This document shows, piece after piece, positions 1 to 43,082 of a stretch of 64,000 bases of DNA. A program made the translations under genes and the position numbers. Under the pieces are notes generated by a model. It was not told the DNA's origin and searched no databases. It saw only the letters and a list, made by a program, of their open reading frames with translations. The stretch comes from Actinomycetota bacterium. GTDB lineage: Bacteria > Actinomycetota > Actinomycetes > S36-B12. The stretch covers positions 506-64,505 of the forward strand of contig JAFMFD010000008.1 of assembly GCA_017856385.1 (NCBI GenBank), given 5' to 3'. The first letter of the stretch is position 1. Each line of letters starts with the position of its first letter.

Positions 1-2512
1 CCTCGTCGAGGAGTGGCGTGCCGAGAAGGCAGCCCGCGGGGTGCTGGACTTCGCCGACCAGATCCGCCTCGCGGGCACCATCGCCGAGCGGTTCCCCGAG
101 GTCGTCGCCGACCTGCGCGAGCGCTTCCGGGTCGTCCTGCTCGACGAGTACCAGGACACCTCGATCGCCCAGCGGCAGCTGCTCCAGCGGATCTTCGGCG
201 ACGGCCATCCGGTCACCGCGGTGGGCGATCCGTGCCAGGCGATCTACGGCTGGCGGGGTGCCACGGTCGACAACATCGAGAGCTTCCCCCAGCACTTCGC
301 CGCGGGCAGCGGACCGGCCGATCGGCACGCGCTGTCGCAGAACCGCCGGTCCGGTCCGGTGATCCTCGACGTCGCCAACCGCACCTCCGAGCGGCTGAGG
401 GAGCTGCATGCCGGGGTGCGTCCTCTGGCCGCCGGCGAGAACGGCAAGGGCCCGGGGGTCGTCGCGTGCGCGCTCCTGGAGACCCACGCGCAGGAGGTCG
501 ACTGGGTCGTCTCGCAGATCGCGGCCACGCACGACTCCGGTCGCGTGCCCTGGCGCGACATCGCGGTGCTCGCCGCGACATCACACGACCTGGTGACCGT
601 CGACGCGGCCCTGCGCCGCCGGGGCATCCCCAGTCGGCTGATGGGCGCTGCGGCACTGCTCGCCCAGCCCGCGGTCGCCGACCTGCGGGCCATGCTGGAG
701 GTGATCCACGACCCGTGCGCCAATCCCTCCTTCGTGCGTCTGGCGGCAGGCCCGCGCTGGCGCATCGGTGCACGTGACCTCGCGGCGCTGGGTGAGCGCG
801 CGCACCGGATCGCGGGGGGTCGTGGTCGCACGCAGCATCCCGACCTCGCCGCCGCCCTCGACGAGGCGGTTGCGGGGATGGACGTGGCGGAGGTCGTCTC
901 GCTCACCGAGGCGCTCGACGACCTCGGTGACCCGGCGCAGTACTCGGCGCAGGCCCGTGAGCGGTTCGCGCAGTTCGCCGTCGAGCTCGCCGCGCTGCGG
1001 GCCCATGGGGGTGACCCGCTGCCGGACCTCCTGCTGCGTGTCATGCGCACGAGCGGTCTGGAGATCGAGGCCGCGTTGCGCGCGGACTCCGACGCCGGCC
1101 AGCAGGCCGCTGCGCTTCACGCATTCGTCGATCTCGCATCAGGCTTCACCGACATCGACGGCCGCGTGGGCCTCGGTGCCTTCCTCGCCCGCCTGCGCGA
1201 TGCCGAGCGACTCGGCAGCGATGTCGACTGCGAGATGCCCGGTGCCGTCGATGCGGTGTCGCTGCTGACCATCCACAAGGCGAAGGGCCTGGAGTTCCCC
1301 TACGTGTTCGTGCCCTTTGTCAGCGAGGGCTCCTTCCCGGGTGGTCGCGGGCGCCCGGTCTGGACCACCAGCGCGGCCACCGTGCCGTGGCCGCTGCGCC
1401 CCGATGCCACGCCGGCACTCGCCGCATTCCCGCCGGCCGGTGCGGCGCCGCGTCGCAAGGACCACGACGCCTACGTCGATCTGCTCCGGGGGATCGCGCA
1501 GGTCGACGACGACCGGCTCGCCTACGTCGCCTTCACCCGAGCGGAGCGTGGACTCGCCGTCTCGGGCCACTGGTGGGGGCCGACCCAGAAGACCCGGCGC
1601 GGCCCGTCCCGGTTCCTCACCGCGGTGCACGAGGCCTGCCTCGACGGCCTCGGCACGGTCGCGCACTGGGCCGAGCAGCCGGCGGACGACGCGACGAATC
1701 CGCAGCGCTCGGACTCCGGGTCGCATGCGTGGCCGACAGCGCTCGACGAGGCCGGACGCACGCTGCTGCTGGCCGCCGCCGACGCGGTGCGCACGGCACC
1801 CGCCCTGGAGGTCGCGCTGCCCGGGCTCGCCCTCGGCGACGCGCAGGCCGACCGGATCGCCGAGTGGGATGAGCAGGCGGCCGCGCTGCTGGCCGAGGCC
1901 CGCGCCCGCAGTGCTGACGACCATGTCGTCCGCCTGCCCTCGTCGATCTCGGTGAGCAGGCTGATGCAGGTGCTCGCCGAACCGCAGCAGGCGGCGCGCG
2001 ACCTCGCCCGGCCGATGCCGCGCCCGCCCAGCCGTGCCGCGCAGCGCGGCACCCGCTTCCATGCGTGGGTGGAGAGCCGCTACGGGCAGCAGTCACTGCT
2101 CGATCCCGACGACCTGCCGGGGGCGGCCGATGCGCACATCACCACCGACGACCAGCTGGCCGAGCTGAAGGCCGCGTTCGAGAGCAGTGCGTACGCACGT
2201 CGCACACCGGTTGGCGTCGAGGTGCCGTTTGCCCTGCTGCTCGGCGGCCGACTGGTCAACGGCCGCATCGATGCGGTGTTCTCGATCGACGAGCCCGGTG
2301 GCGCCACGACCTACGAGGTCGTCGACTGGAAGACGGGTGCGGCCGCCGGTGTCGATCCGATGCAGCTGGCCCTCTACCGGCTGGCCTGGGCGCAGATCGC
2401 CGGGGTCGATGTTGCCAAGGTCTCGGCGGCGTTCCTCATCGTCGCCACGGGTGAGGTGCTGCACCCCGATACCGATGCGCCGCTCGAGAAGCTCGTGCAG
2501 GTGCTCCGCTAG
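1..2512 (+). CDS. adnB: UvrD/Rep-family helicase-nuclease, C-terminal part (5' end outside window), AdnB-like
   Basis: Frame is open from nt 2. Helicase motif VLLDEYQDTS, UvrD_C motifs (TIHKAKGLEF, AFTRAE) and a C-terminal RecB-type nuclease module (GTRFHAWVE, IDAVF, EVVDWKTG, QLALY). Position next to nudC/mycoredoxin/uvrD2 matches M. tuberculosis adnB; the symbol rests on synteny only. Confidence 0.8.
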   Translation, partial: LVEEWRAEKAARGVLDFADQIRLAGTIAERFPEVVADLRERFRVVLLDEYQDTSIAQRQLLQRIFGDGHPVTAVGDPCQAIYGWRGATVDNIESFPQHFAAGSGPADRHALSQNRRSGPVILDVANRTSERLRELHAGVRPLAAGENGKGPGVVACALLETHAQEVDWVVSQIAATHDSGRVPWRDIAVLAATSHDLVTVDAALRRRGIPSRLMGAAALLAQPAVADLRAMLEVIHDPCANPSFVRLAAGPRWRIGARDLAALGERAHRIAGGRGRTQHPDLAAALDEAVAGMDVAEVVSLTEALDDLGDPAQYSAQARERFAQFAVELAALRAHGGDPLPDLLLRVMRTSGLEIEAALRADSDAGQQAAALHAFVDLASGFTDIDGRVGLGAFLARLRDAERLGSDVDCEMPGAVDAVSLLTIHKAKGLEFPYVFVPFVSEGSFPGGRGRPVWTTSAATVPWPLRPDATPALAAFPPAGAAPRRKDHDAYVDLLRGIAQVDDDRLAYVAFTRAERGLAVSGHWWGPTQKTRRGPSRFLTAVHEACLDGLGTVAHWAEQPADDATNPQRSDSGSHAWPTALDEAGRTLLLAAADAVRTAPALEVALPGLALGDAQADRIAEWDEQAAALLAEARARSADDHVVRLPSSISVSRLMQVLAEPQQAARDLARPMPRPPSRAAQRGTRFHAWVESRYGQQSLLDPDDLPGAADAHITTDDQLAELKAAFESSAYARRTPVGVEVPFALLLGGRLVNGRIDAVFSIDEPGGATTYEVVDWKTGAAAGVDPMQLALYRLAWAQIAGVDVAKVSAAFLIVATGEVLHPDTDAPLEKLVQVLR

Positions 2513-12216: not shown

Positions 12217-12242
12217 TCCACGGCTCGCCCCGCGCGAGCTGA

Positions 12243-12283: not shown

Positions 12284-12299
12284 GGATTACCGTTCGTCC

Positions 12300-13637: not shown

Positions 13638-14185
13638 CGCATCCCCTCGCCGACCTGCACGCCGACGCACGGCAGTTGCTTGCGCGCTGGGACCACCCCG
13701 ACGCGAGTCAGCGCCGGCTGCGCGACGAGTACCTGGCTTTCCTCGCCGAGCACCCGGACGCCATGCATCGTGACTGCCGCATCGGGCACCTGACGTCGAG
13801 CGCACTCGTCATGGACACCTCACGCGAGCGCGTCCTGCTCACGCTGCACCCCCGCGTGGGCCGCTGGCTGCAGCTCGGCGGCCACAACGAGCCGGGCGAT
13901 GCCTCGGTCCGGGCGGCCGCGCAGCGCGAGGCGGTCGAGGAGAGCGGGATCGCGCACGTGTCGATCGGTGCCGAGCCGCTACGCCTGGACCGCCACCCGG
14001 TGCCGTGCGGCGGCAGTCCCAGCGTCCACCTCGACGTGCAGTACCTGGCTGAGGTCGACGACGACGCGGTCCCCGTCATCAGCGACGAGTCCGACGACCT
14101 GCGGTGGTTCACGCTGGACCAGGTGCCGGCCGATCTCGATCCCTCGGTGCGTGCGCTCATCGCCGATGCGCTGCGTACCGGTTGA
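13634..14185 (+). CDS. NUDIX hydrolase
   Basis: GTG 13634 overlaps the upstream stop (GTGA). Nudix box GGHNEPGDASVRAAAQREAVEESG. Confidence 0.8.
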   Translation: MTHPLADLHADARQLLARWDHPDASQRRLRDEYLAFLAEHPDAMHRDCRIGHLTSSALVMDTSRERVLLTLHPRVGRWLQLGGHNEPGDASVRAAAQREAVEESGIAHVSIGAEPLRLDRHPVPCGGSPSVHLDVQYLAEVDDDAVPVISDESDDLRWFTLDQVPADLDPSVRALIADALRTG

Positions 14186-14606: not shown

Positions 14607-14810
14607 ATGTCCGCCCTGATGTGGTGGCTCATCCCCATCGGGGCCACGGTGCTCGCGCTCGGATTCGTGCTCCTCCGCAGCCGCCCGGCCCGGCCTACCA
14701 CGGCGGAGGACTCCATGCAGAGCCTGCGCAGGATGCAGCAGGCCATGGAGCGCCCGCTGCCGAGCGCGCCGCCACCGGACGATCCGGCCGATCGACCGGG
14801 GTCGCCATGA
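14607..14810 (+). CDS. small membrane protein (67 aa)
   Basis: ATG 14607 preceded by GAAGGAG. One TM helix (LMWWLIPIGATVLALGFVLL). Stop overlaps the next ATG (ATGA). Confidence 0.6.
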   Translation: MSALMWWLIPIGATVLALGFVLLRSRPARPTTAEDSMQSLRRMQQAMERPLPSAPPPDDPADRPGSP

Positions 14811-15937
14811 GCGGGCTCGCGGACGACCTGGTGTCGGTCGATGCTCCCGCCCGCCGACGCTGGCTGCCGGGGCGCCGCGCCGTGGTCCTGATCGTCAGTG
14901 CGGCGACCACCCTCGGCCTGCTCGCCGTCGCCTGGCTGCTGCCCGTCCCCTTCGTCAAGCTCGCGCCCGGGCCCACGTTCAACGTCATCGGCGAGCAGGA
15001 CGGCCGGCCCGTCATCGAGATCGAGGGCACGACCACGTACCCCGTCACCGGGATCCTCGACATGACGACGGTGCTGGAGTCCGGCGGCCCGCGTGGCGGG
15101 CTGACGTTCGTCGAGGCGATCGAGTCGTGGCTGGATCCGTCGGACGCAGTGCTGCCGCGGGAGATGTTGTTCCCCGACGACCTCTCCGGCGAGGAGCTCC
15201 GCTCGCGCCAGGCCGCGCTGTTCAGCACGTCGGGCTCGTTCGCGGTAGCGGCCGCGATGGACTTCCTCGGTCGGCCCGTGACGTCGACCGTCGTCATCAA
15301 CGCGGTGTACCCCGACTCGCCTGCGGAGGACGTCTTCCGCACGCAGGATCAGATCATCTCCGTCGACGGGGTTGACGTCGCCGAGCCGAACGACGTGGTC
15401 GACGCGGTGCGGTCCCAGCCGATCGGCTCCGCACTGGAGATCACCATCCTGCGCGAGGACGACGAGTCCGGTGCGAGCGAGCAGACCGTGACGGTGACCA
15501 CGGCCGACAACCCTGACAACCCCGGGACCCCGTACCTGGGCATCGGTGTCGCGGACCTCTACGCAGCGGAGTTCCCGATCGAGTTCACCCTCGAGGACGT
15601 CGGCGGCCCCAGCGCCGGGCTGATGTTCGCCCTCGGGATCATCGACAAGCTGACGCCCGAGGACCTCACCGCAGCGGACCACATCGCCGGCACGGGGACG
15701 ATCACCCCCGACGGCAAGGTCGGCCCGATCGGCGGCATCCGACAGAAGGTCGCGGGGGCGCGCGAGGCAGGCGCGAACCTGTTCCTCATGCCCGTCGACC
15801 ATTGCGAGGAGATCGTCGGCCATGTCCCCGACGGCCTGACGGTCGCTGCGGTCAGCACTCTCGACGAGGCCGTGGCGGCGCTGCGGGCGCACGCCGAGGG
15901 GGCGCCCGTGGCCGCCTGCCCGACGGAGACGGCGTGA
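14807..15937 (+). CDS. PDZ domain-containing Lon-like (S16) serine protease, membrane anchored
   Basis: N-terminal TM, PDZ segment, Lon catalytic motif GGPSAGLMFALGI and downstream Lys (GGIRQKVAGA). Rv3194c-type position. Confidence 0.85.
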   Translation: MSGLADDLVSVDAPARRRWLPGRRAVVLIVSAATTLGLLAVAWLLPVPFVKLAPGPTFNVIGEQDGRPVIEIEGTTTYPVTGILDMTTVLESGGPRGGLTFVEAIESWLDPSDAVLPREMLFPDDLSGEELRSRQAALFSTSGSFAVAAAMDFLGRPVTSTVVINAVYPDSPAEDVFRTQDQIISVDGVDVAEPNDVVDAVRSQPIGSALEITILREDDESGASEQTVTVTTADNPDNPGTPYLGIGVADLYAAEFPIEFTLEDVGGPSAGLMFALGIIDKLTPEDLTAADHIAGTGTITPDGKVGPIGGIRQKVAGAREAGANLFLMPVDHCEEIVGHVPDGLTVAAVSTLDEAVAALRAHAEGAPVAACPTETA

Positions 15938-16008: not shown

Positions 16009-19000
16009 GTGAGTTTCCAGATGCCCGGCATGGGCGGCGACGCTCCCGGATCGGTCGATGCCGCGCCCCGCCGTCGCAGCGTCCTGATCCCCACGATCAT
16101 CGTCCTTGCGGTCCTCGTCGGCGCCTTCGTGCTGTTCTCCGGCTACTACACCGACTGGCTCTGGTTCGTCTCGGTCGACAAGACGGAAGTCTTCACCACC
16201 TCGATCCTCACGCGGCTGGCCATGTTCGCGATCTTCGGGCTCGTCATGGCCCTCGTGGTCGGCCTGGCCATGTGGCTGGCCTGGCGGACGCGACCGCCCT
16301 TCACCGGCACGACGCCGGAGCAGGCGAGCCTCGAGCGCTACCGGATCGCCATCGACCCCTACCGACGTCGCATCACGATCGTCCTGGCCCTGCTCATCGG
16401 CTCGGTGGCAGGCCTGACGGCCTCGGGCGAGTGGGGCACCTACCTGCTCTGGCGCAACGCCACCGAGTTCGGCATCGAGGACCCGCAGTTCGGCCTGGAC
16501 CTGTCGTTCTTCACGTTCACGCTTCCGTTCGTGCAGTTCCTGCTCGCCTACGGGTTCTCCGTCGTGGTCGTCACGACGATCCTCGTGGTGATCGTGCAGT
16601 ACCTGTACGGCGGCCTACGCCTGCAGCCACGGGGCGACCGGGCCACCGTCGCGGCCCAGGCTCAGCTCAGCGTCCTGATCGGGCTGTTCCTGCTGCTCAA
16701 GGCAGCGGCCTACTGGTTCGACCGCTTCGCGCTCGACACCAAGAGCCAGCAGCTCGTGGCCGGTTTCACGGGCCTGAAGTACACGGACGTCCACGCGGTG
16801 CTCCCGTCGCTGAACATCCTCGCCGCCATCGCCGTGCTCGTCGCAGCTCTCTTCTTCGTCAACGCGTTCCGCCGTCACTGGGCGGTGCCGGTGATCGGCG
16901 CCCTGCTGCTCGTCGCCACCAGCATCGTGGCGGGCCTGATCTACCCGATGATCGTGCAGCAGTTCCAGGTTCGACCCAGCGAGCTGGTGCGCGAGCAGCC
17001 CTACCTCGAGCGCAACATCAATGCCACGCGAGCGGCCTACGACATCGCGGATGCGGAGATCACCGACTACCCGGGCACCGTGGAGCCGCCCACGGCCGAG
17101 GTCCTGCAGGCGTCGTCAGGAACGCTCAATGCCATCCGGCTCATCGATCCTGCGATCGTCTCGCCGACGTTCAACCAGCTGCAGCAGATCCGCGGCTACT
17201 ACTCGTTCAACAGCACGCTTGACGTCGACCGCTACTCCCTCGACGACAGCAAGCGCGGTGCCGTCGTCGCCGTCCGCGAGATCAACCTGGCGGGAATCCC
17301 CGACGGCCAGCGCAACTGGACCAACGACCGTGCCGTCTACACGCACGGCTACGGAGTCGTCGCGGCCTACGACAACACCTCGCTGACGAACGGCCAGCCG
17401 GACTTCTTCGAGAGCGACATCCCCTCGCAGGGCGAGCTGGAGCTCGAGCAGCCGCGGGTGTACTTCGGTGAACTCTCACCCGCCTACAGCATCGTCGGCG
17501 CGCCCGACGGGTCGCCGCCGATCGAACTGGACTACCCGGACGACACCAGCCCGACCGGCCAGAAGACCAACACCTACGAGGGCTCCGGTGGCGTGCCCAT
17601 GGGCAGCCTGCTCGGGCGCCTGTTGTTCGCGACCAAGTTCCAGGACGCGAACATCCTGCTCTCGGACCTCGTCAACACCGACTCGCGCATCCTGTGGGAC
17701 CGCGGGCCCCTGACGCGGGTCGAGAAGGTCGCGCCGTGGCTGACGCTCGACCAGGACCCCTACCCGGTCGTGGTCGAGGGCCGCATCAAGTGGATCGTCG
17801 ACGGCTACACGGTCTCGAACGAGTACCCGTACGCCAGCCGCGTGAGCCTGAGCGACGCCACGAGCGATTCCGTGAGCGCGCGGACCCTGCCCAGCGGGCT
17901 GCTTCCGCGCGACCAGGTCAACTACATCCGCAACTCCGTCAAGGCGGTCGTCGACGCGTACGACGGCACCGTCACCCTGTACGCGTGGGACGGTCAGGAT
18001 CCGGTCCTGCAGACCTGGATGAAGGCGTTTCCCGGGATCGTCGAGCCCGTGAGCTCGATGCCCGAGTCGATCATGGCCCACGTGCGCTACCCGCAGGACC
18101 TGTTCAAGGTGCAGCGGGCGATCCTCAGCCGCTACCACGTGACCGATCCGACGACCTTCTACAACGCCTCGGACGTCTGGATCGTGCCCAATGACCCGAC
18201 GGTGACGCCGGCGGAGGTCTTCCAGCCGCCGTACTACCTGACGGTGCAGATGCCCGGGCAGGCCGAGCCGACGTTCTCGCTGACGACGACGTTCGCCCCG
18301 CAGCGCCGGCAGACGCTTGCGGCGTTCATGGCTGTGGACTCGGCTCCGGGGGAGGGCTACGGCCGGATGCGCGTGCTCCAGTTGCCCAGCAACACCACGA
18401 TCCCCGGCCCTCAGCAGGTGCAGAACAACTTCGAGTCCGATCCGACGGTGTCCAGCCAGCTCAGCCTGCTTCGCCGGGGTGGCTCGGAGGTCGAGCTCGG
18501 CAACCTGTTGAGCCTGCCGTTCAACGGTGGGCTGCTCTACGTCGAACCGGTCTACATTCGCGCGGCCCAGGACGGCTACCCGCTCCTTCGCAAGGTGCTC
18601 GTCGGGTATGGCGAGAACGTCGCGCTGGAGAACACGCTCGACGTCGCCCTCGCGAAGGTGTTCGGCACGAGTCCGGACGCCACGCCGGAGCCAACGGTCG
18701 ACGACGAGCTCGGCCAACTCGAGGGCGAGGTCACTGAGGAGACCCCACCGATCGAGCCGGAGCCGCCGGCGACGACCGGAGATCCGGCGACCGATCTCGC
18801 CATCGCCGTCGCGGAGGCGCAGCGCGCCTACCAGGACGGCCAGGTCGCGCTGGCCAAGGGCGACTTCGCGGCCTACGGCGAGGCGCAGGACAGGCTCAAG
18901 GCCGCGCTCGACGCGATCGCGCAAGCCGAGGCTGCGCTGACGGGCGGGCAGCTGCTCCCCGAGGAGCCTCCGGTCGAGGAGGCTCCAGCCGATGAGGGTG

Positions 19001-19026
19001 TGCAGTCGGAGGGCACGGCTGCGTGA
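16009..19026 (+). CDS. UPF0182 family large membrane protein
   Basis: 1005 aa, several N-terminal TM helices and a large extracytoplasmic domain. Rv3193c-type position. Confidence 0.85.
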   Translation: MSFQMPGMGGDAPGSVDAAPRRRSVLIPTIIVLAVLVGAFVLFSGYYTDWLWFVSVDKTEVFTTSILTRLAMFAIFGLVMALVVGLAMWLAWRTRPPFTGTTPEQASLERYRIAIDPYRRRITIVLALLIGSVAGLTASGEWGTYLLWRNATEFGIEDPQFGLDLSFFTFTLPFVQFLLAYGFSVVVVTTILVVIVQYLYGGLRLQPRGDRATVAAQAQLSVLIGLFLLLKAAAYWFDRFALDTKSQQLVAGFTGLKYTDVHAVLPSLNILAAIAVLVAALFFVNAFRRHWAVPVIGALLLVATSIVAGLIYPMIVQQFQVRPSELVREQPYLERNINATRAAYDIADAEITDYPGTVEPPTAEVLQASSGTLNAIRLIDPAIVSPTFNQLQQIRGYYSFNSTLDVDRYSLDDSKRGAVVAVREINLAGIPDGQRNWTNDRAVYTHGYGVVAAYDNTSLTNGQPDFFESDIPSQGELELEQPRVYFGELSPAYSIVGAPDGSPPIELDYPDDTSPTGQKTNTYEGSGGVPMGSLLGRLLFATKFQDANILLSDLVNTDSRILWDRGPLTRVEKVAPWLTLDQDPYPVVVEGRIKWIVDGYTVSNEYPYASRVSLSDATSDSVSARTLPSGLLPRDQVNYIRNSVKAVVDAYDGTVTLYAWDGQDPVLQTWMKAFPGIVEPVSSMPESIMAHVRYPQDLFKVQRAILSRYHVTDPTTFYNASDVWIVPNDPTVTPAEVFQPPYYLTVQMPGQAEPTFSLTTTFAPQRRQTLAAFMAVDSAPGEGYGRMRVLQLPSNTTIPGPQQVQNNFESDPTVSSQLSLLRRGGSEVELGNLLSLPFNGGLLYVEPVYIRAAQDGYPLLRKVLVGYGENVALENTLDVALAKVFGTSPDATPEPTVDDELGQLEGEVTEETPPIEPEPPATTGDPATDLAIAVAEAQRAYQDGQVALAKGDFAAYGEAQDRLKAALDAIAQAEAALTGGQLLPEEPPVEEAPADEGVQSEGTAA

Positions 19027-34542: not shown

Positions 34543-35103
34543 TCAGCCGCGGGCGGTGAGGTCCAGGGTGTCGATGTCCTCGCCGAGGTCCTCGAACTGG
34601 CCCATCAGTGTCGTGTAGTCCGAGAGTGCACTGAAGCGGTCGGCGAGGCTCATGTGCGGCTCGAGCAGGGTGCGCGCCTGCGCGAACGACCGGTCGGCGG
34701 CCATCTGGGCGCGCGCCCATGCCGCCTGGGCGCGGCTGTGCGCAGCGGAGACCCGGGTCGACGAGGCCCCGCGGTTCAGGGCCGCGGCCAGCCGGTCGAC
34801 CTCGGTGGCCACGGCAGCGAGCGACCGATCGGCCTCCGCGGCCATCGCCGTCAGCGTGCGCCGGTCGCCGGCGGGCAGGCTCGGCCCGAACGTGCGCTCG
34901 TAGGCGTCGAGGGTGCGCGTGACGGAGGCCTGCAGGGCTCGGGCATCACGGGCGAGGTCGTCGGCCTCGGAGCGGGCGTTCTGGGCCGCTGGCACGCTCA
35001 TCGAGGTGCCGGGAGCCGCCTGCGCGGCCCCGGTGGCGAGAGAGGCGACGAGGGCCGTCGCCAGCCCTGCGACGACCATGCCCCACCGGAACCTGCGCTT
35101 CAT
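34543..35103 (-). CDS. secreted alpha-helical hypothetical protein
   Basis: Signal peptide MKRRFRWGMVVAGLATALVASLATGAAQA. Ala/Arg-rich helical sequence. Confidence 0.65.
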   Translation of the reverse strand: MKRRFRWGMVVAGLATALVASLATGAAQAAPGTSMSVPAAQNARSEADDLARDARALQASVTRTLDAYERTFGPSLPAGDRRTLTAMAAEADRSLAAVATEVDRLAAALNRGASSTRVSAAHSRAQAAWARAQMAADRSFAQARTLLEPHMSLADRFSALSDYTTLMGQFEDLGEDIDTLDLTARG

Positions 35104-35213
35104 CAGCTCCCCGACCCGTCGTCCGCCCCCGACTGCCCCGCCAGTGTATGTCGACGGCCCGGCGACCTCGGTTTCCGACGTCCGGTGTCAGGGGCCGTCG
35201 ATACATTCGCCCA

Positions 35214-35249
35214 ATGCTGGTGCAGGTCGACATGCTGGTGCAGGTGGAC
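35214..35249 (+). repeat. 18-bp tandem duplication at the nuclease gene start
   Basis: ATGCTGGTGCAGGTCGAC / ATGCTGGTGCAGGTGGAC (MLVQVD twice). Confidence 0.9.
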
Positions 35250-36140
35250 GACGCCGCCTCCGGCGTGCTGCCCGAGGTCTGGTCCCCCTCCTCGCTGAAC
35301 TCCTTCCTCGGCTGCCCCCTGGCCTACTGGTGGCGCTATGCGCAGGGCTGGCGTGGCGTCCCCACGGCGGCGATGGAGGCCGGCACCCTCGTGCACGACG
35401 TCCTCGAGCGCCTGCTCGAACTGGAGCCCGACGAGCGGACGCGTGAGCGGGCACGCGACCTGTACGCCGAGGAGGCGGCCGCCCTGGCCGACCGGCTCGA
35501 TCCGCGCATCGACCGCGATGACCTGCGCGCCCGCGCCGGAGCGGCACTCGCCAACTACTTCGATCAGGAGCAGCCCGAGCTCGTCGACGTCGTGCCCGAG
35601 GGCCTCGAGCGGAAGGTCTCGGCGACCCTGGACGGCGTGCCCATCGCCGGGCTCGTCGACCGCCTGGAGTTCGCGACCGCCGGTGCCCGGGTGCTCGACT
35701 ACAAGACCGGCGGGGCCAAGCCGCGGTACGCCGGCGACTACTGGCGGCAGGTGCTGCTGTATGCGCGGATGCTCGGCGAGCAGGGCACCGACGTCGCCGA
35801 GGTAGCCCTGATGTACCTCGGCTCGCCCGCGCGCACCCTCGTCCGGCCCACGCCGCCCCAGGCGCTCGACCGGGTGCAGGGCGACCTCGTGCGGGCGCAG
35901 GGAGAGCGCCTGCAGGCTCATGACGCGTCCGTGTGGCCGGCCCGACCGGGTCCGCTGTGCCAGTACTGCCCGTACCGCTCCGCCTGCCCGGCCGTCGACG
36001 AGCGGGCGCGGCCGACCCCGGGCACCGAGCCCAGCCACCGCCTTCTCGAGGCCAGCCCGGACGTCATGCGGAGGGTCGCGTCGACGCCGGTCGACGACGA
36101 GGACGTGCCGCTTGCCGACCTCGACGAGGGTGCGCCATGA
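35214..36140 (+). CDS. PD-(D/E)XK nuclease with Cas4/AddB-type 4-Cys cluster
   Basis: GCPLAYW plus CQYCPYRSAC. GTLVHDVLE, VDRLEF, VLDYKTG, QVLLYARM. Start ATG 35214 or 35232 within ORF 35148..36140. Confidence 0.8.
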   Translation: MLVQVDMLVQVDDAASGVLPEVWSPSSLNSFLGCPLAYWWRYAQGWRGVPTAAMEAGTLVHDVLERLLELEPDERTRERARDLYAEEAAALADRLDPRIDRDDLRARAGAALANYFDQEQPELVDVVPEGLERKVSATLDGVPIAGLVDRLEFATAGARVLDYKTGGAKPRYAGDYWRQVLLYARMLGEQGTDVAEVALMYLGSPARTLVRPTPPQALDRVQGDLVRAQGERLQAHDASVWPARPGPLCQYCPYRSACPAVDERARPTPGTEPSHRLLEASPDVMRRVASTPVDDEDVPLADLDEGAP

Positions 36141-37936
36141 CCGTGCCCGTCCCCGCGTGGGATCCGCCGTGGGAGGCCAAGGGCGCACCCGGCTTCGTGC
36201 GCGTCACCAGCGTCATGACCCGAGACCAGGGCTGTCCCGAGCAGGTCGCGCGCAAGGCCCGTCCCGACCTGTATCCCGTCGCCCGCGCCCCGCGCGAGCC
36301 CTCCGGGCTCGGCTCCTTCCCGCTCGGCCTGGTCCGCGACGCCGCGCTGCTGCTGCTCACCACCCCGGCGGAGGCCGGCCCGGCCGCGGTCCGCATCCAC
36401 GATGCGGTGGCGAAGGCCGCCGCGCAGTCGCGCGACGACTGGCCCGACGAGTCGGTGGCGGCGGCCGAGGCTGGGGTGCTGGGCTACCTGGAGGTCCTGG
36501 AGTCCCTGCGCGCGGCCGGCGAGCTGCCGGAGAGTGTGGTGGTCGCGGACGTCGTCGCGGTGCAGGACCCTGAGGGTGAGCGCACGGAGTTCTGGGGATG
36601 GGCGGTCCACCACGTCAGTCGCGACGGCTCGGTGCGCGAGGTGCATCTCCTGCGCTGGCGGCGTGCGGGCGACGTGCCGCTTGGTCCGGCCGAGCCTGCC
36701 TTCCTCGCCCACGTCGCGGGCAGCGGCTTCGTCGCCGACACGTCGAGCGGGTGGTGGAAGCCGTTCCGGCCGACTCGGTCGATGGCCCAGCCGCCTGCGG
36801 CGGACACCGTGCGCGTGCGCGTCATCGGCGTGCTCGACGGGTCCAGCGACGTGCGGTTCACCGGCTCACCGCAGGAGGCCGAGCAGGCCTTCCTCGCGCA
36901 GGTGCCCGGGACGCTCGGCCGGCTCGCCGGCGGGGCGACGCGTGCCGGTCGCGGCTGCGGCACCTGCAACGTGCGCCACGTCTGCGAAGGCGTGCCGCAG
37001 TATCCGGGACTGCTCGGCATCGCGGGGTTCTCGACGAGACTGCGTGCGCTCTCACCGTCGGACCTGTGGACCCATGCCGCATGCCCCCGCCAGCTGCACC
37101 TGCTGCGCGACCTCGGCCTGCCGCGCGAGCGGCAGGAGCCGTCCGACGCGCTGCGTCGCGGCACCGCCGTCCATGACTGGCTCCGACTCGCGCACGAGCG
37201 GGGAGAGCCCTGCCGCGAGGCCGATCTCGACGCGAACGGGGGCGCGGCACTGCATGAGGTGCTCGGCTGGAGCTCGGACGACCTCGCGGCCCGCGCCCCG
37301 TACCTGCGCCAGCACCTGGCGCTGTGCCCGTGGTCCGACGCGGACGTCACCCGCATGGTGTCCGAGGTCGACATCACCGCGTGGGACACCGACGCCAACG
37401 TGCTGTTCAGCACGCGACCCGATGCCGCGTACCTCGCGGCCGACGGCCGGTGGGTGCTGCGCGAGATCAAGACCCTCAGTCCACGCAACCTGCCCGACGA
37501 CCCCAACGACCTGCTGGTCCGCTACCCGCAGGTGGCGGCGGCCGTCTGCCTCCTCGCCGACGGCTACCGACCCGATGCCCAGCCCACCCCGGGCCCGGGC
37601 CGCGTCGAGCTCGAGCTGCTGGGGCCCGAGGCCGGTCGCGTGCTCGTCTTCGATGCCGCTGATCCGGTGACGGTGCTCGTGGCCCGCACGGCGCTGGCCG
37701 GTCGGGTCGACGCCTGGCTGTTCGACGACGAGCACCCGATCGGGGTGCGGCCGCCGTGCGCGACGTGCGAGGTCGCCCGCTGGTGCGACCGTCGGCCCGC
37801 CGACGTGCTCGACGTGGCGGCCGAGGGCCTGACCGTGCCGCAGGCCACCGGCCCGGACTGGGATGTGCAGGCGCCCGATGTGGTGCTGCGCGACCTGATG
37901 GGCGTGGCCTCGGACGAAGAGGAGTTCCCCTTCTGA
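36137..37936 (+). CDS. tandem double PD-(D/E)XK / Cas4-like nuclease-fold protein (599 aa)
   Basis: ATGA overlap with the upstream gene. N-module GCPEQV plus CGTCNVRHVC (no ExK). C-module ACPRQL, GTAVHDWL, PDAAYL, LREIKT, CATCEVARWC. Confidence 0.8.
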   Translation: MTVPVPAWDPPWEAKGAPGFVRVTSVMTRDQGCPEQVARKARPDLYPVARAPREPSGLGSFPLGLVRDAALLLLTTPAEAGPAAVRIHDAVAKAAAQSRDDWPDESVAAAEAGVLGYLEVLESLRAAGELPESVVVADVVAVQDPEGERTEFWGWAVHHVSRDGSVREVHLLRWRRAGDVPLGPAEPAFLAHVAGSGFVADTSSGWWKPFRPTRSMAQPPAADTVRVRVIGVLDGSSDVRFTGSPQEAEQAFLAQVPGTLGRLAGGATRAGRGCGTCNVRHVCEGVPQYPGLLGIAGFSTRLRALSPSDLWTHAACPRQLHLLRDLGLPRERQEPSDALRRGTAVHDWLRLAHERGEPCREADLDANGGAALHEVLGWSSDDLAARAPYLRQHLALCPWSDADVTRMVSEVDITAWDTDANVLFSTRPDAAYLAADGRWVLREIKTLSPRNLPDDPNDLLVRYPQVAAAVCLLADGYRPDAQPTPGPGRVELELLGPEAGRVLVFDAADPVTVLVARTALAGRVDAWLFDDEHPIGVRPPCATCEVARWCDRRPADVLDVAAEGLTVPQATGPDWDVQAPDVVLRDLMGVASDEEEFPF

Positions 37937-37959
37937 TCGCCCGCGCCGACCACGGACGA

Positions 37960-40926
37960 TCAGGGCAGGGCGAGGTCCGGATGGGCCGCGTCAAAGGCCT
38001 GCTCCACCTCGATCGGGATACGGCCCCGTGCGGAGATCTCGAACCCGGCTGACGGAGCCCACTGCCGGATGCGGGAGATCTTCTCCGCGCGCGTGGCGCG
38101 ACCCGCGGGCGGCGTGACACCCGCATCGAAGCGCGCTGAGCTGCGGATCTCCGCGGGGGCACCGAGCTCCTGGATCACGGCCGGCTCCGGCAGGTCGACG
38201 ACCTCGATGCCCTGCTCGACGGCTGCCGCGCGCACATGCGCGTGGTGAGTGGTGAGGATGACCTGGCGGTCGCCGGCCCACGCCGCGAGGGCGTGCAGGG
38301 CGATGCCGGTGCGGTCGTCGTCGAAGGCGAGCAGGACGTCGTCGAGGACGACCGGCAGGGCGGTGACGCCCTGGGCGTGCTGCTGGGCCAGGCGATGCTC
38401 GAGGCCTGCGAGGCGCAGGGCGAGGAACACCTGGTCGGCGGTGCCCTCGGACAGCGCGTCGACGGTGACCGGCTCGCGGTCGCGTCGGTGGATGCGCAGC
38501 GTGCGCCGGCCGTCACCGGCCTCGCGCGACGACAGCGCGACGTAGCGACCCTCGGTCAGGGACTCCAGCAGCTCTCCGGCCCGATCGAGCGTGCTCGAGC
38601 CGTGGGCGAGGACCTGCGCCTCGAGCCGGTCATCGAGCAGGCGCAGTGCGATGACCGTCCGCGCGTACTCCTCGACCAGCTCTGCCAGGTGGTCGCGTGC
38701 GCTGCGGGCCTCCTGCGCGGCGGCCGCCGCATCGTCGGCCTCCTCGGCTTCGCGAAGTGCGTGATCGGCGGCCACCCGAACGTCGCGCGCCTCCTCGTAC
38801 TCGGCGATTCGCTCGTTGCGCTCGGCACGTCGCTCGTCGACCTCGTCCGCCAGGTCGGACGGCACCGCTGCGGCCAGGCGCTCGATCGCGGCGTCGACCT
38901 GCGCATCGGTCTCGAACACGGCCCGCAGCGGGATCCGCGCGTTCACGAGCTCGGTGGTGCGCTCGTCATGCTCGATCGTGCGTTCGGCCAGCTCCGCAAG
39001 GCCGTCCAGGCTGGACGGGTGCGTGGACTCGACGAGCGCGTCGAGCTGGTGCGCGATCACGCCCTCCTCATCGGCCGCCTCGGCGATGCGGGCCGCGATT
39101 CGCTCGTGCTCGCCGCGCAGGCGGGCGAGCTCCTGCCGCGCTTCACGCGCCCGCTGCAGCTGGTCGTGGAGCTGGGCCACCTGACCGGGAACGTCTGCGA
39201 CGACATCATGACGACGCGCCACCGTGGCCACGGACTCGGCGAAGGCGGACCACTGCGCCGCTTGCGCGGCGACCTGCTCCTGCGCCGCGGTCCAGGAGCG
39301 CAGGCCCTCGGCCAGCTGCTCCAGCAGCGAGGCCCTGGTCGACCAGCCCTCATCGGTGAGTCCGGCGGGCAGGCCGGCCGCCGCTGCGACGTCGGACCAG
39401 CGCCGCTCGGCGGCCTCGAGGTCGTCGCGGCGGGTGCTCTCCTCGCGAGCGGTGCGCTGGGCGCGACGCGCCAGCTCGTCGGCGCGGGCATCGAGGCGTG
39501 ACCACGCGGAAAGGTCCGAGGCGAATCGGTCGGCCGCCTCGTCGGCCCGCTGCTGGGCCTGCTCGAGCCGGGTCGCGAGGGCGTTGCGCGCAGCGTCGTC
39601 GAGCACTCGGCCGAGGGCGGCCGCCACGTCGTGCCATGCCGCATCCCGCGAGTCGCGCGCTGCGGTGACCTCGGCCGGGTCGACCTCGGCGGCCTCGCCG
39701 AGCTCCTCTCGGCGCTGCGCGAGTTCTGCCTCGGCCTCGCGTCGGGCCTCCCGCGCCTGCTGCCACACGAGCCTCGCCTGCCCGGCCTCATCCGCTCGGG
39801 CCTGCAGACCCGCCGCGACGTCGTCGCCGACGAGCAGCGCGGCAGCGGACGCGTGCAGGGACTCCGGTTCGGGGACCGGTGCCTGCAGGCGCTCGAGCAG
39901 CGCGACGACGTCGGCGCGCGCCTCGTGCTCAGCCGTGCGCGAGGTCTCCGCGGCCGCGCGGTGCGCCTGCGCCTGCGCCAGCCCGCGGTTGGCCTCGTCG
40001 ATGGGCTCGGCGTCGTCGAGGATCGGATCGGCGGCGGGGGATGCGGCGATCTGGCGCGCGATGGCGTCGAGGTCGCGCGGCAGGTGCTCGCGCTCCTGCT
40101 GCACGGTTGCGAGGTCGGCGATCAGGTCGACCGTGCGTCGGGCATCGGCAATGGGCATGAGACCGGCTGCCGCGAGGTCCGCCGCGGCCCCCTGGAGGCG
40201 GACTACTGCTGCGACGTAGTCCAGGGCGCTGATGTCGCGCTCGAGCCGATGGAGCGTCGTGGAGACCTCGTCACGCCGCTCGCGGGCCACCGCCTCGTCG
40301 CGCAGGGCCTCCTGCACCTGGTTCGCGAGGACCCGGATGCGGGCGGGGTCGACGGTGGCGCGCGACTCGCGCTCGCGGGCGGCCTCGAGAGCCGTGACGG
40401 CGTCAGCGATGAGGGAGTGCGCACTCCTGCGGGGGCGGAACAGGGCCTCGGCGCGTCGGGCGAGCCGATTCCGCAGGCGCCGTGCGCTGAAGCCCTCGTG
40501 GGAGAGGAAGATGACATCGGCCAGGTCGCCCGTGCCGGTGACCAGCTGGCGCCCGCCCTCGCGCATCGCGGCATGGTCCAGGCCGTGCGTGTCGAGCCAG
40601 GGCCCCCACCCCCGGACGGCGGGCAGCCAAGGGTCATCGATCCGGGTGAGGTCGTCGGCGCGCAGCACCTCCGACGGCGTGCGCCGGTACTCCACCGAGC
40701 CCACCGCGTAGGTCGCGATCGTGAACCGGACGCCGAGGTCGGTGGGTCGCACGCCATGGACGGAGGTGCGGGGCAGTCCGGACACCACAGCATCGAGTCC
40801 GGCGAGAAGCGTGCTCTTGCCGGCCTCATTGCGGCCGAACACCACGGTCAGCCCGGGCGCGAAGCTCAGCGTCGTCGGGCCCAGTACGCCGAACGGCGCG
40901 AAGGTGACGTCCGCGAGGTGGCTCAC
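37960..40926 (-). CDS. SbcC/Rad50/YhaN-like AAA ATPase with C-terminal Lsr2-type DNA-binding domain
   Basis: Walker A GRNEAGKST, long coiled-coil, signature LSEGTADQ, Walker B VVLDDVLLAFDD. C-terminus RIRQWAPSAGFEISARGRIPIEVEQAFDAA. Confidence 0.85.
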   Translation of the reverse strand: MSHLADVTFAPFGVLGPTTLSFAPGLTVVFGRNEAGKSTLLAGLDAVVSGLPRTSVHGVRPTDLGVRFTIATYAVGSVEYRRTPSEVLRADDLTRIDDPWLPAVRGWGPWLDTHGLDHAAMREGGRQLVTGTGDLADVIFLSHEGFSARRLRNRLARRAEALFRPRRSAHSLIADAVTALEAARERESRATVDPARIRVLANQVQEALRDEAVARERRDEVSTTLHRLERDISALDYVAAVVRLQGAAADLAAAGLMPIADARRTVDLIADLATVQQEREHLPRDLDAIARQIAASPAADPILDDAEPIDEANRGLAQAQAHRAAAETSRTAEHEARADVVALLERLQAPVPEPESLHASAAALLVGDDVAAGLQARADEAGQARLVWQQAREARREAEAELAQRREELGEAAEVDPAEVTAARDSRDAAWHDVAAALGRVLDDAARNALATRLEQAQQRADEAADRFASDLSAWSRLDARADELARRAQRTAREESTRRDDLEAAERRWSDVAAAAGLPAGLTDEGWSTRASLLEQLAEGLRSWTAAQEQVAAQAAQWSAFAESVATVARRHDVVADVPGQVAQLHDQLQRAREARQELARLRGEHERIAARIAEAADEEGVIAHQLDALVESTHPSSLDGLAELAERTIEHDERTTELVNARIPLRAVFETDAQVDAAIERLAAAVPSDLADEVDERRAERNERIAEYEEARDVRVAADHALREAEEADDAAAAAQEARSARDHLAELVEEYARTVIALRLLDDRLEAQVLAHGSSTLDRAGELLESLTEGRYVALSSREAGDGRRTLRIHRRDREPVTVDALSEGTADQVFLALRLAGLEHRLAQQHAQGVTALPVVLDDVLLAFDDDRTGIALHALAAWAGDRQVILTTHHAHVRAAAVEQGIEVVDLPEPAVIQELGAPAEIRSSARFDAGVTPPAGRATRAEKISRIRQWAPSAGFEISARGRIPIEVEQAFDAAHPDLALP

Positions 40927-42167
40927 GGTGTGTCTCCTGCAGAGAGCTCGTCGAGCAGCTCCTGCCCGGCCTCGGCGATCAGCGCGGACAGTGCCGTGGA
41001 TGAGCTGAGGTCCACACCGGAGTCGCGCAGCAGCGCCTGCGTGCGCGTGCGCACCTCCGTCAGCAGCGCACTTGCCTCGCCCGGCGCGAGGTCGTCGATG
41101 GCGCGCTCGAGCTCCGCGCGCAGCGCGGCATCCACGACGGGCGCGTCGGACTCCTCGTGCGGCGCTCGGTGCAGCGTCACCTTCTCCAGCGTGGAGCCGG
41201 CCACCACATCGCGGACCAGCTCGGTGAGCTCCTCAGAGGCGCGCAGTGCACCCAGAAGGCGGGGATCGGCGGTGATGCGCGTGCGGACGATGAGCGGCAG
41301 CGAACCGCTGTGGGCGCGCAGTTGCTGGTGGTCCGCGGCGATCGCGGCCAGCACGTCGTCGGCGGACGACATCGGGCGCGCGGGATCGGTCGCGTCGACC
41401 TCGATGACCTCCCAGCGCAGCACGTCCAGCGGTTGGAACTGCACGTGCGGGGCCCGTGGGTCGGCGAGGTCGACCAGCAGGGCGCCCTTGGGGCCGGTCT
41501 CGCGCACCGATCGGCCCTGGAGGTTGCCGGGGTAGGCGGCGAAGGTGCGCTGGCCGTCGAGGAAGCTGCGACGTGCGTGGACGTGGCCGAGGGCGACGTA
41601 GCTGTAGTCGAGGCTGCGGAGGTCGTCAGCGGTGCAGGGCGAGTAGTTGTCGTGCCCGGACGACCCGCCCACATTCGCGTGCAGGACGCCGATGTTCACC
41701 AGGCCGGGATCCGGCAGCGGGTAGTGCGCGGCCAGCGAGTGCTCGATGGCCGGCGTCGCGTAGCCCTGACCATGGAACGACAGTCCCGCGTCGTCGAGAC
41801 GGAGCGTCTCGGCTGACTCGACCGACAGCACGTGCATGGATGGGGGGTAGATGACCTCCGCCATCAGCACGCTCGCCGCATCGTGGTTGCCGCTCGCCAT
41901 GACGACGGGGATCCCGGCATCGGCGAGGTCGCGCATGCCCTCCACGAACACGCGTCGCGTGCCCGTGTGCTTCCACGACCCGTCGAAGATGTCGCCCGCG
42001 AGCACGAGTGCGTCCGGCTGCTCGGTGATCGCCCAGTCGATCAGGCCGCGGAAGGCGGAGCGGGTCGCACCGGAGATGAGGTCGGCGTCGGCGTGGTCGG
42101 CCAGCGCCGACGACAGCCCGGAGAGCTGGCTGTCGATGTGCAGGTCGGCGGCGTGGATGATGCGCAT
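40923..42167 (-). CDS. SbcD/Mre11/YhaO-like metallophosphoesterase (DNA repair exonuclease)
   Basis: IIHAADLHID, LAGDIFD, SGNHD, GHVH motifs. Stop overlaps the ATPase start. Confidence 0.85.
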   Translation of the reverse strand: MRIIHAADLHIDSQLSGLSSALADHADADLISGATRSAFRGLIDWAITEQPDALVLAGDIFDGSWKHTGTRRVFVEGMRDLADAGIPVVMASGNHDAASVLMAEVIYPPSMHVLSVESAETLRLDDAGLSFHGQGYATPAIEHSLAAHYPLPDPGLVNIGVLHANVGGSSGHDNYSPCTADDLRSLDYSYVALGHVHARRSFLDGQRTFAAYPGNLQGRSVRETGPKGALLVDLADPRAPHVQFQPLDVLRWEVIEVDATDPARPMSSADDVLAAIAADHQQLRAHSGSLPLIVRTRITADPRLLGALRASEELTELVRDVVAGSTLEKVTLHRAPHEESDAPVVDAALRAELERAIDDLAPGEASALLTEVRTRTQALLRDSGVDLSSSTALSALIAEAGQELLDELSAGDTP

Positions 42168-42263: not shown

Positions 42264-43082
42264 TCAGGCCGTCGGGACCACCTGCACGTCGACCTCGATC
42301 GGCGACGCACCGCCGCGGCACGTCACCGACACCTCGGCCTCGACCCCGGGATGGCAGGGGTCGACGACTCGCTCGCGCACGATGCTGCTGCTCGATGTCC
42401 GCGCCGCCCCCGCGACGCCGTCCTGCACGATCCGCAGCAGGTCGCGCTGCGCGCAGGGCCCGAGCTGCGCCACCTCCGGCCCAACCCCGCTGATCCGCAC
42501 CTCGCGCAGCGGAGCCCACTGCTCGCGTACCGTCGTGATGGCCTCGTCGAGGGGCCGAGCCGGGGTCGCGGCGGGTCCGGTCATGTCGCGCACGATGCTT
42601 CGCAGCTGCCGGCATCGGCTTGCAGCGTCGGTCGCGCGCAACGCCCGGTCGAGTGCGTCGGCGGGCGGGGCACCACGCAGCTCGGCGACGAGGGCAGCCA
42701 GCTCGGCGCGCTGACGCTCGTCCAGGACCGCGACGCGCTGCCGCGCCCCGTCAGGTCCGTCATCGCCGAGCCGGCGCGTCACGGCCTCGCGGACGAGGGA
42801 GTCGAAGGTCGCGCTGACCGTGGGGGAGCCGAGTTGCGACGAGATCGCCCACCAGTCGTCCAGGGTCAGCAGGCTGGCGTCCTCGGCATCCGTCGGGATC
42901 AATCCGCCCGGCGCGGGGGCGGCCGTTGCCAGGCGCTGCCGCAGGGCCGACGCGATGACGGCGAGCTCGACGCGGGCGAGCTCGAGCTGCACGCCCTCCT
43001 CGGCCACGGGGTCGTGGGCAACGATGCACGCGCTCCCGCTGCCCCTGGCCGCGGTGCACGCGCTCCCTCTGCCCCTACCCAC
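42264..43082 (-). CDS. hypothetical protein (start uncertain)
   Basis: GC3 is near 100% at the 3' end. Lies between the response regulator and the sbcD-like gene on the same strand. No confident family. Confidence 0.55.
   Translation of the reverse strand: MGRGRGSACTAARGSGSACIVAHDPVAEEGVQLELARVELAVIASALRQRLATAAPAPGGLIPTDAEDASLLTLDDWWAISSQLGSPTVSATFDSLVREAVTRRLGDDGPDGARQRVAVLDERQRAELAALVAELRGAPPADALDRALRATDAASRCRQLRSIVRDMTGPAATPARPLDEAITTVREQWAPLREVRISGVGPEVAQLGPCAQRDLLRIVQDGVAGAARTSSSSIVRERVVDPCHPGVEAEVSVTCRGGASPIEVDVQVVPTA

Follow-up and report, generated by a model that had tools for sequence, protein, structure and literature searches.

Two overlapping genes in a contig of an Actinomycetota bacterium encode three Cas4-like nuclease modules and no recognizable helicase (GenBank assembly GCA_017856385.1, contig JAFMFD010000008.1, positions 506 to 64,505; this whole stretch of 64,000 nucleotides (nt), with a GC content of about 72%, is called the window here). 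Gene 1 (35214..36140, + strand) encodes a single-module PD-(D/E)XK nuclease of the Cas4/RecB family with 308 amino acids (aa), and gene 2 (36137..37936, + strand) encodes a two-module protein of 599 aa from the PADLOC family PprPDDEXK. We propose that the pair is a translationally coupled, helicase-free dual nuclease for single-stranded DNA (ssDNA), which would obtain its unwinding in trans through the interactome of SSB (single-stranded DNA-binding protein). We put the probability of this reading at about 0.5.

In the proposed mechanism, the products of gene 1 and gene 2 would assemble into one heteromer, which would hold at most three [4Fe-4S] clusters and cleave ssDNA in two channels. The gene 1 protein and the C-terminal module of gene 2 (C-module) would cut single strands threaded through these channels, as the nuclease domains of AdnA, AddB, and ACE1 do. 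The N-terminal module of gene 2 (N-module), which looks catalytically dead, would be a scaffold or strand guide similar to the inactivated nuclease fold of RecC. A mimic of the SSB tip at the end of gene 2 would dock the nuclease onto proteins that read the SSB tail, with a RecQ-type helicase as the best candidate; this helicase would unwind the DNA in trans, and the resulting strands would be degraded at the two active sites. The pair would resect or degrade ssDNA and DNA ends in order to repair breaks, to restrict foreign DNA, or to do both, like RecBCD/AddAB. In this clade the nuclease cassette would have lost its link to PIWI-RE and acquired a Cas4-like partner. The scheme presumes complex formation, Fe-S loading, nuclease activity, tail binding, and a biological role.

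Organization and conservation of the gene pair

Gene 1 and gene 2 are the sole plausible coding frames between 35214 and 37936. They share an ATGA start/stop overlap (36137..36140, + strand) that can be read directly from the sequence, the ATG of gene 2 being at 36137-36139 and the TGA of gene 1 at 36138-36140. A ribosome-binding-site-like GAGGG (36126-36130) is 6 nt 5' of the gene 2 ATG. Because of the start/stop overlap, the sequence implies that the two genes are translationally coupled. An initial annotation of this DNA, made from the sequence alone, had already given these two genes, their lengths, and their overlap; the coordinates agree with our direct reading, and an independent gene call on a public metagenome contig containing this stretch yielded the same pair.

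The start of gene 1 has an imperfect 18-bp tandem duplication (35214-35249; ATGCTGGTGCAGGTCGAC / ATGCTGGTGCAGGTGGAC), which is translated as MLVQVD-MLVQVD, and the true start could be either 35214 or 35232. The closest homolog (P0071) starts with MLVTVDD, and most other homologs have a few additional N-terminal residues. A promoter and terminator scan of 34900-38100 found none, and such a scan is uninformative for an actinobacterium with 73% GC.

A homolog of gene 1 is found immediately upstream of gene 2 in all of the approximately 20 loci of the window clade for which upstream sequence is available. These paired loci come from metagenome-assembled genomes (MAGs) and metagenomes, and there are two more distant ones (P0050 and P0067). 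In most cases the overlap of gene 1 and gene 2 is 1-11 nt (11 nt in L002; 4 nt in L015, L016, L046, and L047; 1 nt in L017), while the genes called on the P0067 contig overlap by 58 nt. The pairing holds down to about 31% identity, and the two proteins diverge from those of the window in parallel, with 43-68% identity for gene 1 and 41-64% for gene 2. A neighbor-joining tree built from 142 members of the family places every known paired protein in one clade, and the window clade of paired proteins appears monophyletic from its sequences. Moreover, the gene 1 homologs recovered by searching are almost solely from such pairs.

The two genes might instead encode independent enzymes, a generic RecB-family exonuclease and a separate nuclease, which share regulation and form no complex. 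Solo gene-2-like proteins without gene 1 occur at Streptosporangium loci, and single-module Cas4-like exonucleases act alone in phages, both of which fit this explanation. However, the strict co-occurrence, the fixed order, and the overlap conserved across about 20 loci argue against it, as does the near restriction of gene 1 homologs to pairs, together with a C-terminal extension that non-paired P0110 lacks. We thus consider independent enzymes very improbable.

At one locus (L014, 9074-11796, from MAG MFD09848.bin.2.19) both genes are frameshifted into several frames. These copies may be pseudogenes or an assembly error, and one lineage or more may be able to do without the pair.

Gene 1 is a Cas4-like nuclease

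Gene 1 matched Pfam PDDEXK_1 (4.4e-35, residues 23-259). Its best named matches were Cas4 models, NCBIfam cas4 (TIGR00372) with 55 bits, which is under the 65-bit equivalog cutoff, and PADLOC Cas4 (2e-16). It also matched a PHROG exonuclease family (1.4e-26). In alignments of 19-20 homologs with a mean column identity of 44-45%, H61, D149 (VDRL), D162-Y-K164 (LDYK), and Y183 are invariant and Q179 is conserved at about 90%. The iron staple consists of C34 and C249/C252/C258, which are the only four cysteines of the protein. After the cysteine cluster there is a conserved extension of about 50 aa, which is absent in the nearest non-paired relative (P0110).

These Cas4 matches, and the presence of ACE1 among the top structural matches described below, are what would be expected if the pair were a CRISPR adaptation Cas4 or an ACE-type guide processor associated with a prokaryotic Argonaute (pAgo). 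But the cas4 score is below its cutoff and gene 2 has no cas4 match. The annotated 10 kb to the left and to the right of the pair include no cas1 or cas2, and the window has no CRISPR-like repeat array. There is no PIWI/Argonaute protein at the locus and no unexplained open reading frame (ORF) of PIWI size in the window. This candidate is hardly credible and was ruled out here, on the score below cutoff and the lack of cas genes in the annotated surroundings and of an array or PIWI-sized ORF in the window. A phage or prophage origin was also rejected, as the neighbors are housekeeping genes and the BFVD matches were only single-module phage exonucleases (TMq at most 0.33).

Gene 2 contains one apparently active and one degenerate module

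Gene 2 can be divided into an N-module with a degenerate Cas4/AdnA-like fold (approximately residues 12-296; 36170..37024, + strand) and a C-module that is apparently an active Cas4-like nuclease (approximately residues 297-556; 37025..37804, + strand). The iron staple of the N-module is C33, C274, C277, and C283, and that of the C-module is C316, C541, C544, and C550. Including gene 1, three modules thus carry the C-x(n)-C-x2-C-x5-C pattern. All 12 staple cysteines are invariant in the gene 1 homologs and in 28 gene 2 homologs with identities down to 28%, which is far beyond chance. The sequence pattern for [4Fe-4S] binding is present in all three modules, and they probably carry such clusters.

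The C-module matched Pfam PDDEXK_1 (1.5e-19, residues 305-551), and hhalign aligned it to the gene 1 family with 95.8% probability (E=7.6e-9). It retains H346, and its D417, D429 (PDAAY), E443-x-K445 (REIK), and Q465 are invariant. In contrast, the N-module has no D...(D/E)xK motif in the alignment of 28 homologs, where E168-V-H170 occupies the expected ExK position. The homolog alignments therefore bear out what the initial annotation had read from a single sequence, namely three modules with iron staples and a catalytic set that is retained in gene 1 and the C-module and lost in the N-module. The N-module does have invariant residues of its own (R22, R42, W155, and R167), and these suggest a structural or ssDNA-guiding role.

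The C-module also has a family-specific insertion (37193-37327) in which H353, C359, H393, and C397 are invariant or nearly so in both close and distant alignments. These four residues could be an additional metal site, perhaps of zinc type.

The N-half of gene 2 had no Pfam or NCBIfam match, and hhalign gave weak partial alignments around CxxCx5C, with 45% probability to the C-module and 25% to gene 1. A PDB sequence search with both proteins returned chance matches only (E at least 0.03), and therefore a fold comparison was needed. The AlphaFold2 model of the full gene 2 protein had a predicted local distance difference test score (pLDDT) of 88.5 and a predicted template modeling score of 0.87, and its order of secondary structures occurs twice. 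The N-module modeled alone (residues 1-298) had a pLDDT of 89.3. Foldseek matched this N-module to the AdnA nuclease domain (6ppr_A, E=2.1e-6) and to ACE1 (9iac, template modeling (TM) score 0.48-0.52). Further PDB matches were Exo5, Cas4 SSO0001 (4ic1), AddB (3u44_B), Dna2, and MGME1. The full gene 2 model likewise matched AdnA, ACE1, Exo5, the SSO0001 Cas4, AddB, Dna2, and MGME1. Because the model matches the AdnA, ACE1, Exo5, Cas4, and AddB folds, the N-half is, as predicted by modeling, a third and degenerate Cas4/AdnA-type module. Since the sequence link between the N-module and the C-module is weak, the three-module claim rests on structure prediction and the cysteine pattern.

There was also a weak N-module match to chain C of the RecBCD entry 7mr4 (E=4e-3), which we take to be RecC from the chain length. 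The arrangement of one active and one inactive module had been likened to AddB and AdnA. The dead module is supported, but that analogy concerns the motor domains of these proteins, and the inactivated nuclease of RecC is a closer comparison.

Gene 2 ends with an SSB-like tip

The alignment and the pLDDT profile delimit a disordered linker (approximately residues 557-591) and an acidic tip, ...SDEEEFPF, at the C-terminus of gene 2 (37805..37933, + strand; tip at 37910-37933). The pLDDT is below 50 at residues 562-579 and 591-597. All 24 tail-bearing sequences in the alignment, including all of those from loci paired with gene 1, have acidic residues followed by [FIVLP]PF at the tip, and the linker is variable. 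In SSB itself, the C-terminal tip (SSB-Ct) reads GADDEPPF for the M. smegmatis protein and DDDIPF for that of E. coli (PMC3575820). The tip of gene 2 matches the published SSB-Ct motif D-D-(D/E)-(I/P)-P-F and follows a linker of low pLDDT. An SSB-like tip is present in 104 out of 214 sequences of the PprPDDEXK family, and many of them are exactly DDEPPF, DDDPPPF, DEDIPF, or DDDIPF. Gene 2 has no match to an oligonucleotide-binding (OB) fold or SSB family and its model consists of nuclease-type modules, so that the tip motif is all it has in common with SSB.

Paired, solo, and pPIWI-RE-linked members all have the tail, which in the tree marks a large clade that encloses the paired clade. As solo and pPIWI-RE-linked relatives carry it, its target should be neither gene 1 nor a PIWI-RE-specific protein. 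From this distribution, the target is probably something common to all hosts, or the protein itself. Gene 1 was considered as the target and is unlikely, as relatives without gene 1 keep the tail.

The pair has no motor, and helicases are found next to its relatives

Neither gene 1 nor gene 2 has a Walker A or DExx motif, and searches of Pfam, NCBIfam, and PADLOC found no helicase or P-loop family in either. In the AlphaFold2 model, the two modules and the disordered tail cover all 599 aa of gene 2. The absence of a helicase in the initial annotation thus holds after a search of these profiles for a cryptic helicase domain.

The initial annotation had also suggested that a helicase is borrowed in trans. 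This is the reading that we favor, on the strength of the SSB-Ct-like tip and of a RecQ neighbor in two genomes. At L015 (identical to L011), a 715-aa RecQ-family helicase (11856-14003; TIGR00614 with 229.5 bits, cutoff 219.8) is encoded 44 nt after gene 2 on the same strand. At L009, a 77%-identical RecQ homolog (6101-8290) is located upstream and is co-directional, with the order RecQ, a 213-aa ORF, gene 1, gene 2. RecQ therefore flanks the pair on one side at L015 and on the other side at L009. E. coli RecQ is one of the classic readers of the SSB tip. Across the family, members adjoin three kinds of helicases, which are RecQ-like, UvrD-like, and pPIWI-RE-associated (Pfam pPIWI_RE_Z).

The window itself encodes other helicases. 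An AdnB/AddA-type protein with UvrD-helicase, UvrD_C, and PDDEXK_1 domains (Pfam) is located at 41..2512 (+ strand), where the ORF continues beyond the window start and the C-terminal 823 aa are included; it has partial NCBIfam matches to PcrA, UvrD, RecB, and AddA. Since the genome has an AdnB/AddA-type helicase-nuclease, the pair is an addition to it and not a replacement. A UvrD2-like helicase with an HRDC domain is at 5245-7326. In the left part of the window, the AdnB/AddA-type gene (41-2512) and the UvrD2-like gene (5245-7326) are followed by an ABC1 kinase (7331-8644), Zincin_2 (12300-13637), a Lon_C+PDZ protease (14621-15937), and UPF0182 (16009-19026). The order of these six genes resembles that of Rv3193c-Rv3202c of M. 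tuberculosis and places the organism in the Actinomycetota. The left end of the window is syntenic with an actinobacterial repair region, and the block with the two helicase genes resembles the mycobacterial adnAB-uvrD2 region.

The PprPDDEXK family and its contexts

Gene 2 matched the PADLOC defense model PprPDDEXK (PDLC02423) with an E-value of 2.4e-52 and 176.7 bits, and the match covers residues 33-554 of the protein and positions 4-445 of the 449 in the model. The "Ppr" in the model name stands for pPIWI-RE. Because the match is nearly full length, the architecture with two Fe-S modules was already cataloged, and the implication in the initial annotation that this is an unknown family does not stand. 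We found no paper that characterizes the family: literature searches on 'PprPDDEXK' and pPIWI-RE returned no functional study and no description of a fourth Cas4-like gene. The 2013 paper on pPIWI-RE describes operons of three genes with no Cas4-like fourth (PMC3702460). The gene 2 homologs form 69 clusters at 90% identity. An exhaustive profile search gave 532 representatives (at 50% identity) with E at most 1e-3, of which 203 had E at most 1e-30. The family is essentially actinobacterial.

Three distant relatives, from Streptomyces clavuligerus (P0069) and two others (P0068 and P0066), are encoded directly upstream of genes for the pPIWI_RE_Y/restriction endonuclease (REase), the pPIWI_RE_Z helicase, and pPIWI-RE. 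The gene of each of these relatives has a 4-nt overlap with the gene after it, and an N6 methyltransferase is nearby. The same operon context was found at L021, L025, L030, and L035 (Streptosporangium, Spirillospora, and Actinomadura). The pPIWI_RE_Z helicase has been described as DinG-like (PMC3702460). Solo gene-2-like genes are located among metabolic genes in many Streptosporangium species.

Other relatives are in different surroundings. In Actinomadura geliboluensis (L023, 9938-16056) the gene of a tail-bearing relative precedes those for a UvrD-like helicase of 689 aa and for a protein of 590 aa without a Pfam match, and an N6 methyltransferase gene is convergent on this set. This may be another uncharacterized system built on the same nuclease. 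Two-module relatives are also encoded on plasmids of Rhodococcus (L044, 8551-12122) and Streptomyces (L045, 8710-12412). Downstream of both, a hypothetical protein with a length of about 265 aa is encoded (with a weak PIN_4 match in one of them), and both have a convergent ImmA/IrrE metallopeptidase. The neighbors of the Rhodococcus plasmid copy include a methyltransferase of the EcoRI family and a DUF262 protein, and transposases are also among the neighbors of the plasmid-borne relatives.

These contexts raise the question of whether the pair is a defense effector, as the initial annotation offered as one option. It would be a rewired or stripped-down derivative of the pPIWI-RE accessory nuclease that destroys phage or plasmid DNA, for example ssDNA intermediates of replication or transfer. 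The match to a defense model, the relatives in pPIWI-RE operons with a methyltransferase nearby, and the plasmid relatives beside an EcoRI-family methyltransferase, DUF262, transposases, and ImmA/IrrE are all in its favor. Some paired loci are near genes for GmrSD_C, for PIN/PhdYeFM (toxin-antitoxin type), or for Fic and a nucleotidyltransferase, and the frameshifted L014 copy would fit a dispensable gene. However, the 10 kb to the left and right of the pair encode none of the pPIWI_RE REase, the pPIWI_RE_Z helicase, and pPIWI-RE. Only four ORFs in the window are 800 aa or longer, none of which is PIWI-RE-like, and no ORF of suitable size or family is present. The paired loci likewise have no PIWI-RE, methyltransferase, or other self/non-self component. 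Furthermore, genomes in which the proteins share only about 56-64% identity have the pair at one and the same genomic position (between sulfatase and MMPL), and therefore the pair looks vertically inherited rather than part of a defense island. A defense effector is a live alternative, which we consider possible but somewhat unlikely.

Neighboring genes

The pair is convergent on an operon for Mre11/Rad50-like proteins. The first is a Rad50/SbcC-like AAA_27 ATPase of 988 aa with a C-terminal Lsr2 domain (37960..40926, - strand; Pfam AAA_27 4.2e-22, Lsr2_DNA-bd 3.6e-10), and the second is an Mre11/SbcD-like metallophosphoesterase of 414 aa (40923..42167, - strand; Pfam Metallophos 9.6e-12; NCBIfam sbcd with 65.8 bits, cutoff 77.65). 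The two genes overlap by 4 nt, and the gap between gene 2 and the Rad50-like gene is 23 nt. The Lsr2 domain (37984-38076, - strand; residues 951-981 of the Rad50-like protein) is an unusual fusion, and no Lsr2 match is listed for the orthologous protein at L017. A 272-aa ORF without a Pfam match (42264-43082, - strand) separates the Mre11-like gene from a response regulator, and it contains a 30-nt imperfect tandem duplication (43017-43076).

Mre11/Rad50-like genes adjoin the pair only in the window (L001), L005, L017/L018, and L050/L054/L055, which is about 4 out of 13 informative loci. L046 keeps the M10 peptidase, the sulfatase, the PE-PGRS_C-like protein, the pair, the response regulator, Imm_superinfect, CysS_C, and MMPL, and it has no Mre11/Rad50-like genes. 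L007 is syntenic and lacks them as well. The convergence on this operon was correctly noted in the initial annotation, but the echo of addBA-sbcDC that was seen in it does not extend to the other loci. Neighborhood conservation with sbcCD-like genes had been named there as a check, and the neighborhood is not conserved; the parallel is local to some genomes and not a property of the system, because adjacency is limited to about 4 of the 13 loci.

The pair could be a dedicated nuclease partner of the adjacent Mre11/Rad50-like complex, so that all four proteins would be one end-processing machine. Both gene sets plausibly act on DNA ends, and the convergent arrangement across a short gap is repeated at the other loci with adjacency. 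But adjacency is absent in about 9 of the 13 informative loci, including the syntenic ones, and the distant pairs with P0050 and P0067 do not have these neighbors. Moreover, convergent genes are not co-transcribed. A dedicated partner is therefore improbable.

Resection nuclease or defense nuclease

Several observations favor chromosomal maintenance as the role of the pair in this clade. Its genomic position is stable, as described above, and the paired loci lack any self/non-self component. All informative neighbors are RecQ or SbcCD-like genes, and the borrowed motif belongs to the housekeeping SSB hub.

Other observations weigh against a helicase-free nuclease that works through the SSB interactome. 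The firmest context of the family is defense (pPIWI-RE, methyltransferases, and plasmids) and not repair. RecQ adjacency was found at 2 of about 13 informative loci, the two genomes are related, and the window has no RecQ homolog. Complex formation and the tail partner are the weakest links of the proposal. The acidic tail could be an autoinhibitory DNA mimic that folds onto the DNA channel of its own protein, which is a serious alternative, and the AlphaFold2 model places the tail without confidence. In the N-module, a residual capacity to bind metal might persist at E151, E168, and H170. Finally, the RecO of M. smegmatis does not bind the SSB-Ct of its own species (PMC3575820), and hence the SSB-tip interactome of actinobacteria is poorly mapped.

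A more specific and speculative version of the proposal, which we regard as doubtful, is that the pair is a plug-in resection nuclease without a motor that uses SSB-tip mimicry to join RecQ-type or other helicases that read the SSB tail. It would be a bacterial counterpart of the long-range resection carried out in eukaryotes by Sgs1/BLM, Dna2, and RPA. If so, the Mre11/Rad50-like short-range step would be encoded beside the pair in some genomes, and the whole PprPDDEXK family, including its pPIWI-RE members, would hook Fe-S nucleases onto host helicases by SSB-tip mimicry. Our literature searches found no description of SSB-tip recruitment as a principle for nucleases.

The bacterial end-resection nucleases of this fold are known in motor complexes (RecBCD, AddAB, and AdnAB), while its helicase-free relatives are known from CRISPR adaptation (Cas4) and Argonaute guide processing (ACE1). 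If the pair is a conserved heteromer without a motor, the nuclease half would be a portable cassette that is attached to different helicases by a short linear motif. This would give a handle on DNA degradation by pPIWI-RE systems, which are almost uncharacterized, and on the SSB-tip readers of actinobacteria. It would also help to ask whether an extra resection route beside AdnAB is present in abundant freshwater and soil actinobacteria that are known only from metagenomes. If the pair is merely a redundant exonuclease, the result is a modest improvement in annotation.

Comparison with known systems

The building blocks of the pair are known, namely the Cas4-family Fe-S nucleases, the helicase-free ACE1, and the PprPDDEXK model. 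We found no description in the literature of the tandem live/dead architecture with two staples as such, of its stand-alone pairing with a Cas4-like partner, of the SSB-tip mimic, or of helicase neighbors that recur but are interchangeable. The closest relatives are the PprPDDEXK proteins. Similar to gene 2 they have near full-length homology, two modules, and two iron staples, and many have an SSB-Ct-like tip. Unlike them, the pair has no pPIWI-RE, REase, helicase, or methyltransferase, and it has an overlapping Cas4-like gene 1 upstream and a clade of its own.

Gene 1 shares its motifs and its 1+3 cysteine pattern with CRISPR Cas4 and solo Cas4 proteins. Cas4-like nucleases of pfam12705 pair with helicases (UvrD, COG1205) by fusion or in operons (PMC5704561). 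Gene 1 differs in being under the Cas4 cutoff, in having no cas genes or array, and in having a nuclease and not a helicase as its partner.

AdnAB and AddAB are the best structural match for both modules of gene 2 (6ppr_A, E about 1e-6), with an iron-staple PD-(D/E)XK fold. This fold threads ssDNA, and each complex has two nuclease sites (PMC12094033). However, the pair has no superfamily 1 (SF1) motor, it has three modules instead of two, one of which is apparently dead, and it has a tail with an SSB tip.

ACE1 is a helicase-free Fe4S4 ssDNA endonuclease of the Cas4 family that forms a heterodimer with a long-A pAgo partner, and genomes lacking pAgo are reported to encode many of the ACEs (PMC12094033). 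ACE1 is among the top structural matches of gene 2 (TM score about 0.5), but it is a single module without a tandem dead module, an SSB-like tail, or a Cas4-like partner. The initial annotation knew of no helicase-free heterodimer of this kind. ACE1 with pAgo, which has been characterized by experiment, is a precedent for a Cas4-family nuclease that has no helicase and acts with a partner, whereas for a tandem live/dead protein with a Cas4-like partner we found no earlier description.

In RecC, a dead PD-(D/E)XK fold persists beside an active nuclease and acts as a scaffold or a channel for the strand, and the N-module weakly matched the presumed RecC chain in Foldseek. To our knowledge, this RecC domain has no Fe-S staple, and it is part of a motor complex.

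Eukaryotic Dna2, which acts with Sgs1/BLM and RPA in long-range end resection after Mre11-Rad50, is a functional analogy only. Its nuclease was a structural match, and homology is limited to the nuclease fold. Dna2 needs a RecQ-family helicase and contacts an ssDNA-binding protein. Unlike the pair, it carries a helicase domain of its own and just one nuclease module. Nevertheless, the pair parallels the setting of Dna2 in its RecQ-family neighbors, its SSB-tip motif, and, in some genomes, its Mre11/Rad50-like neighbors.

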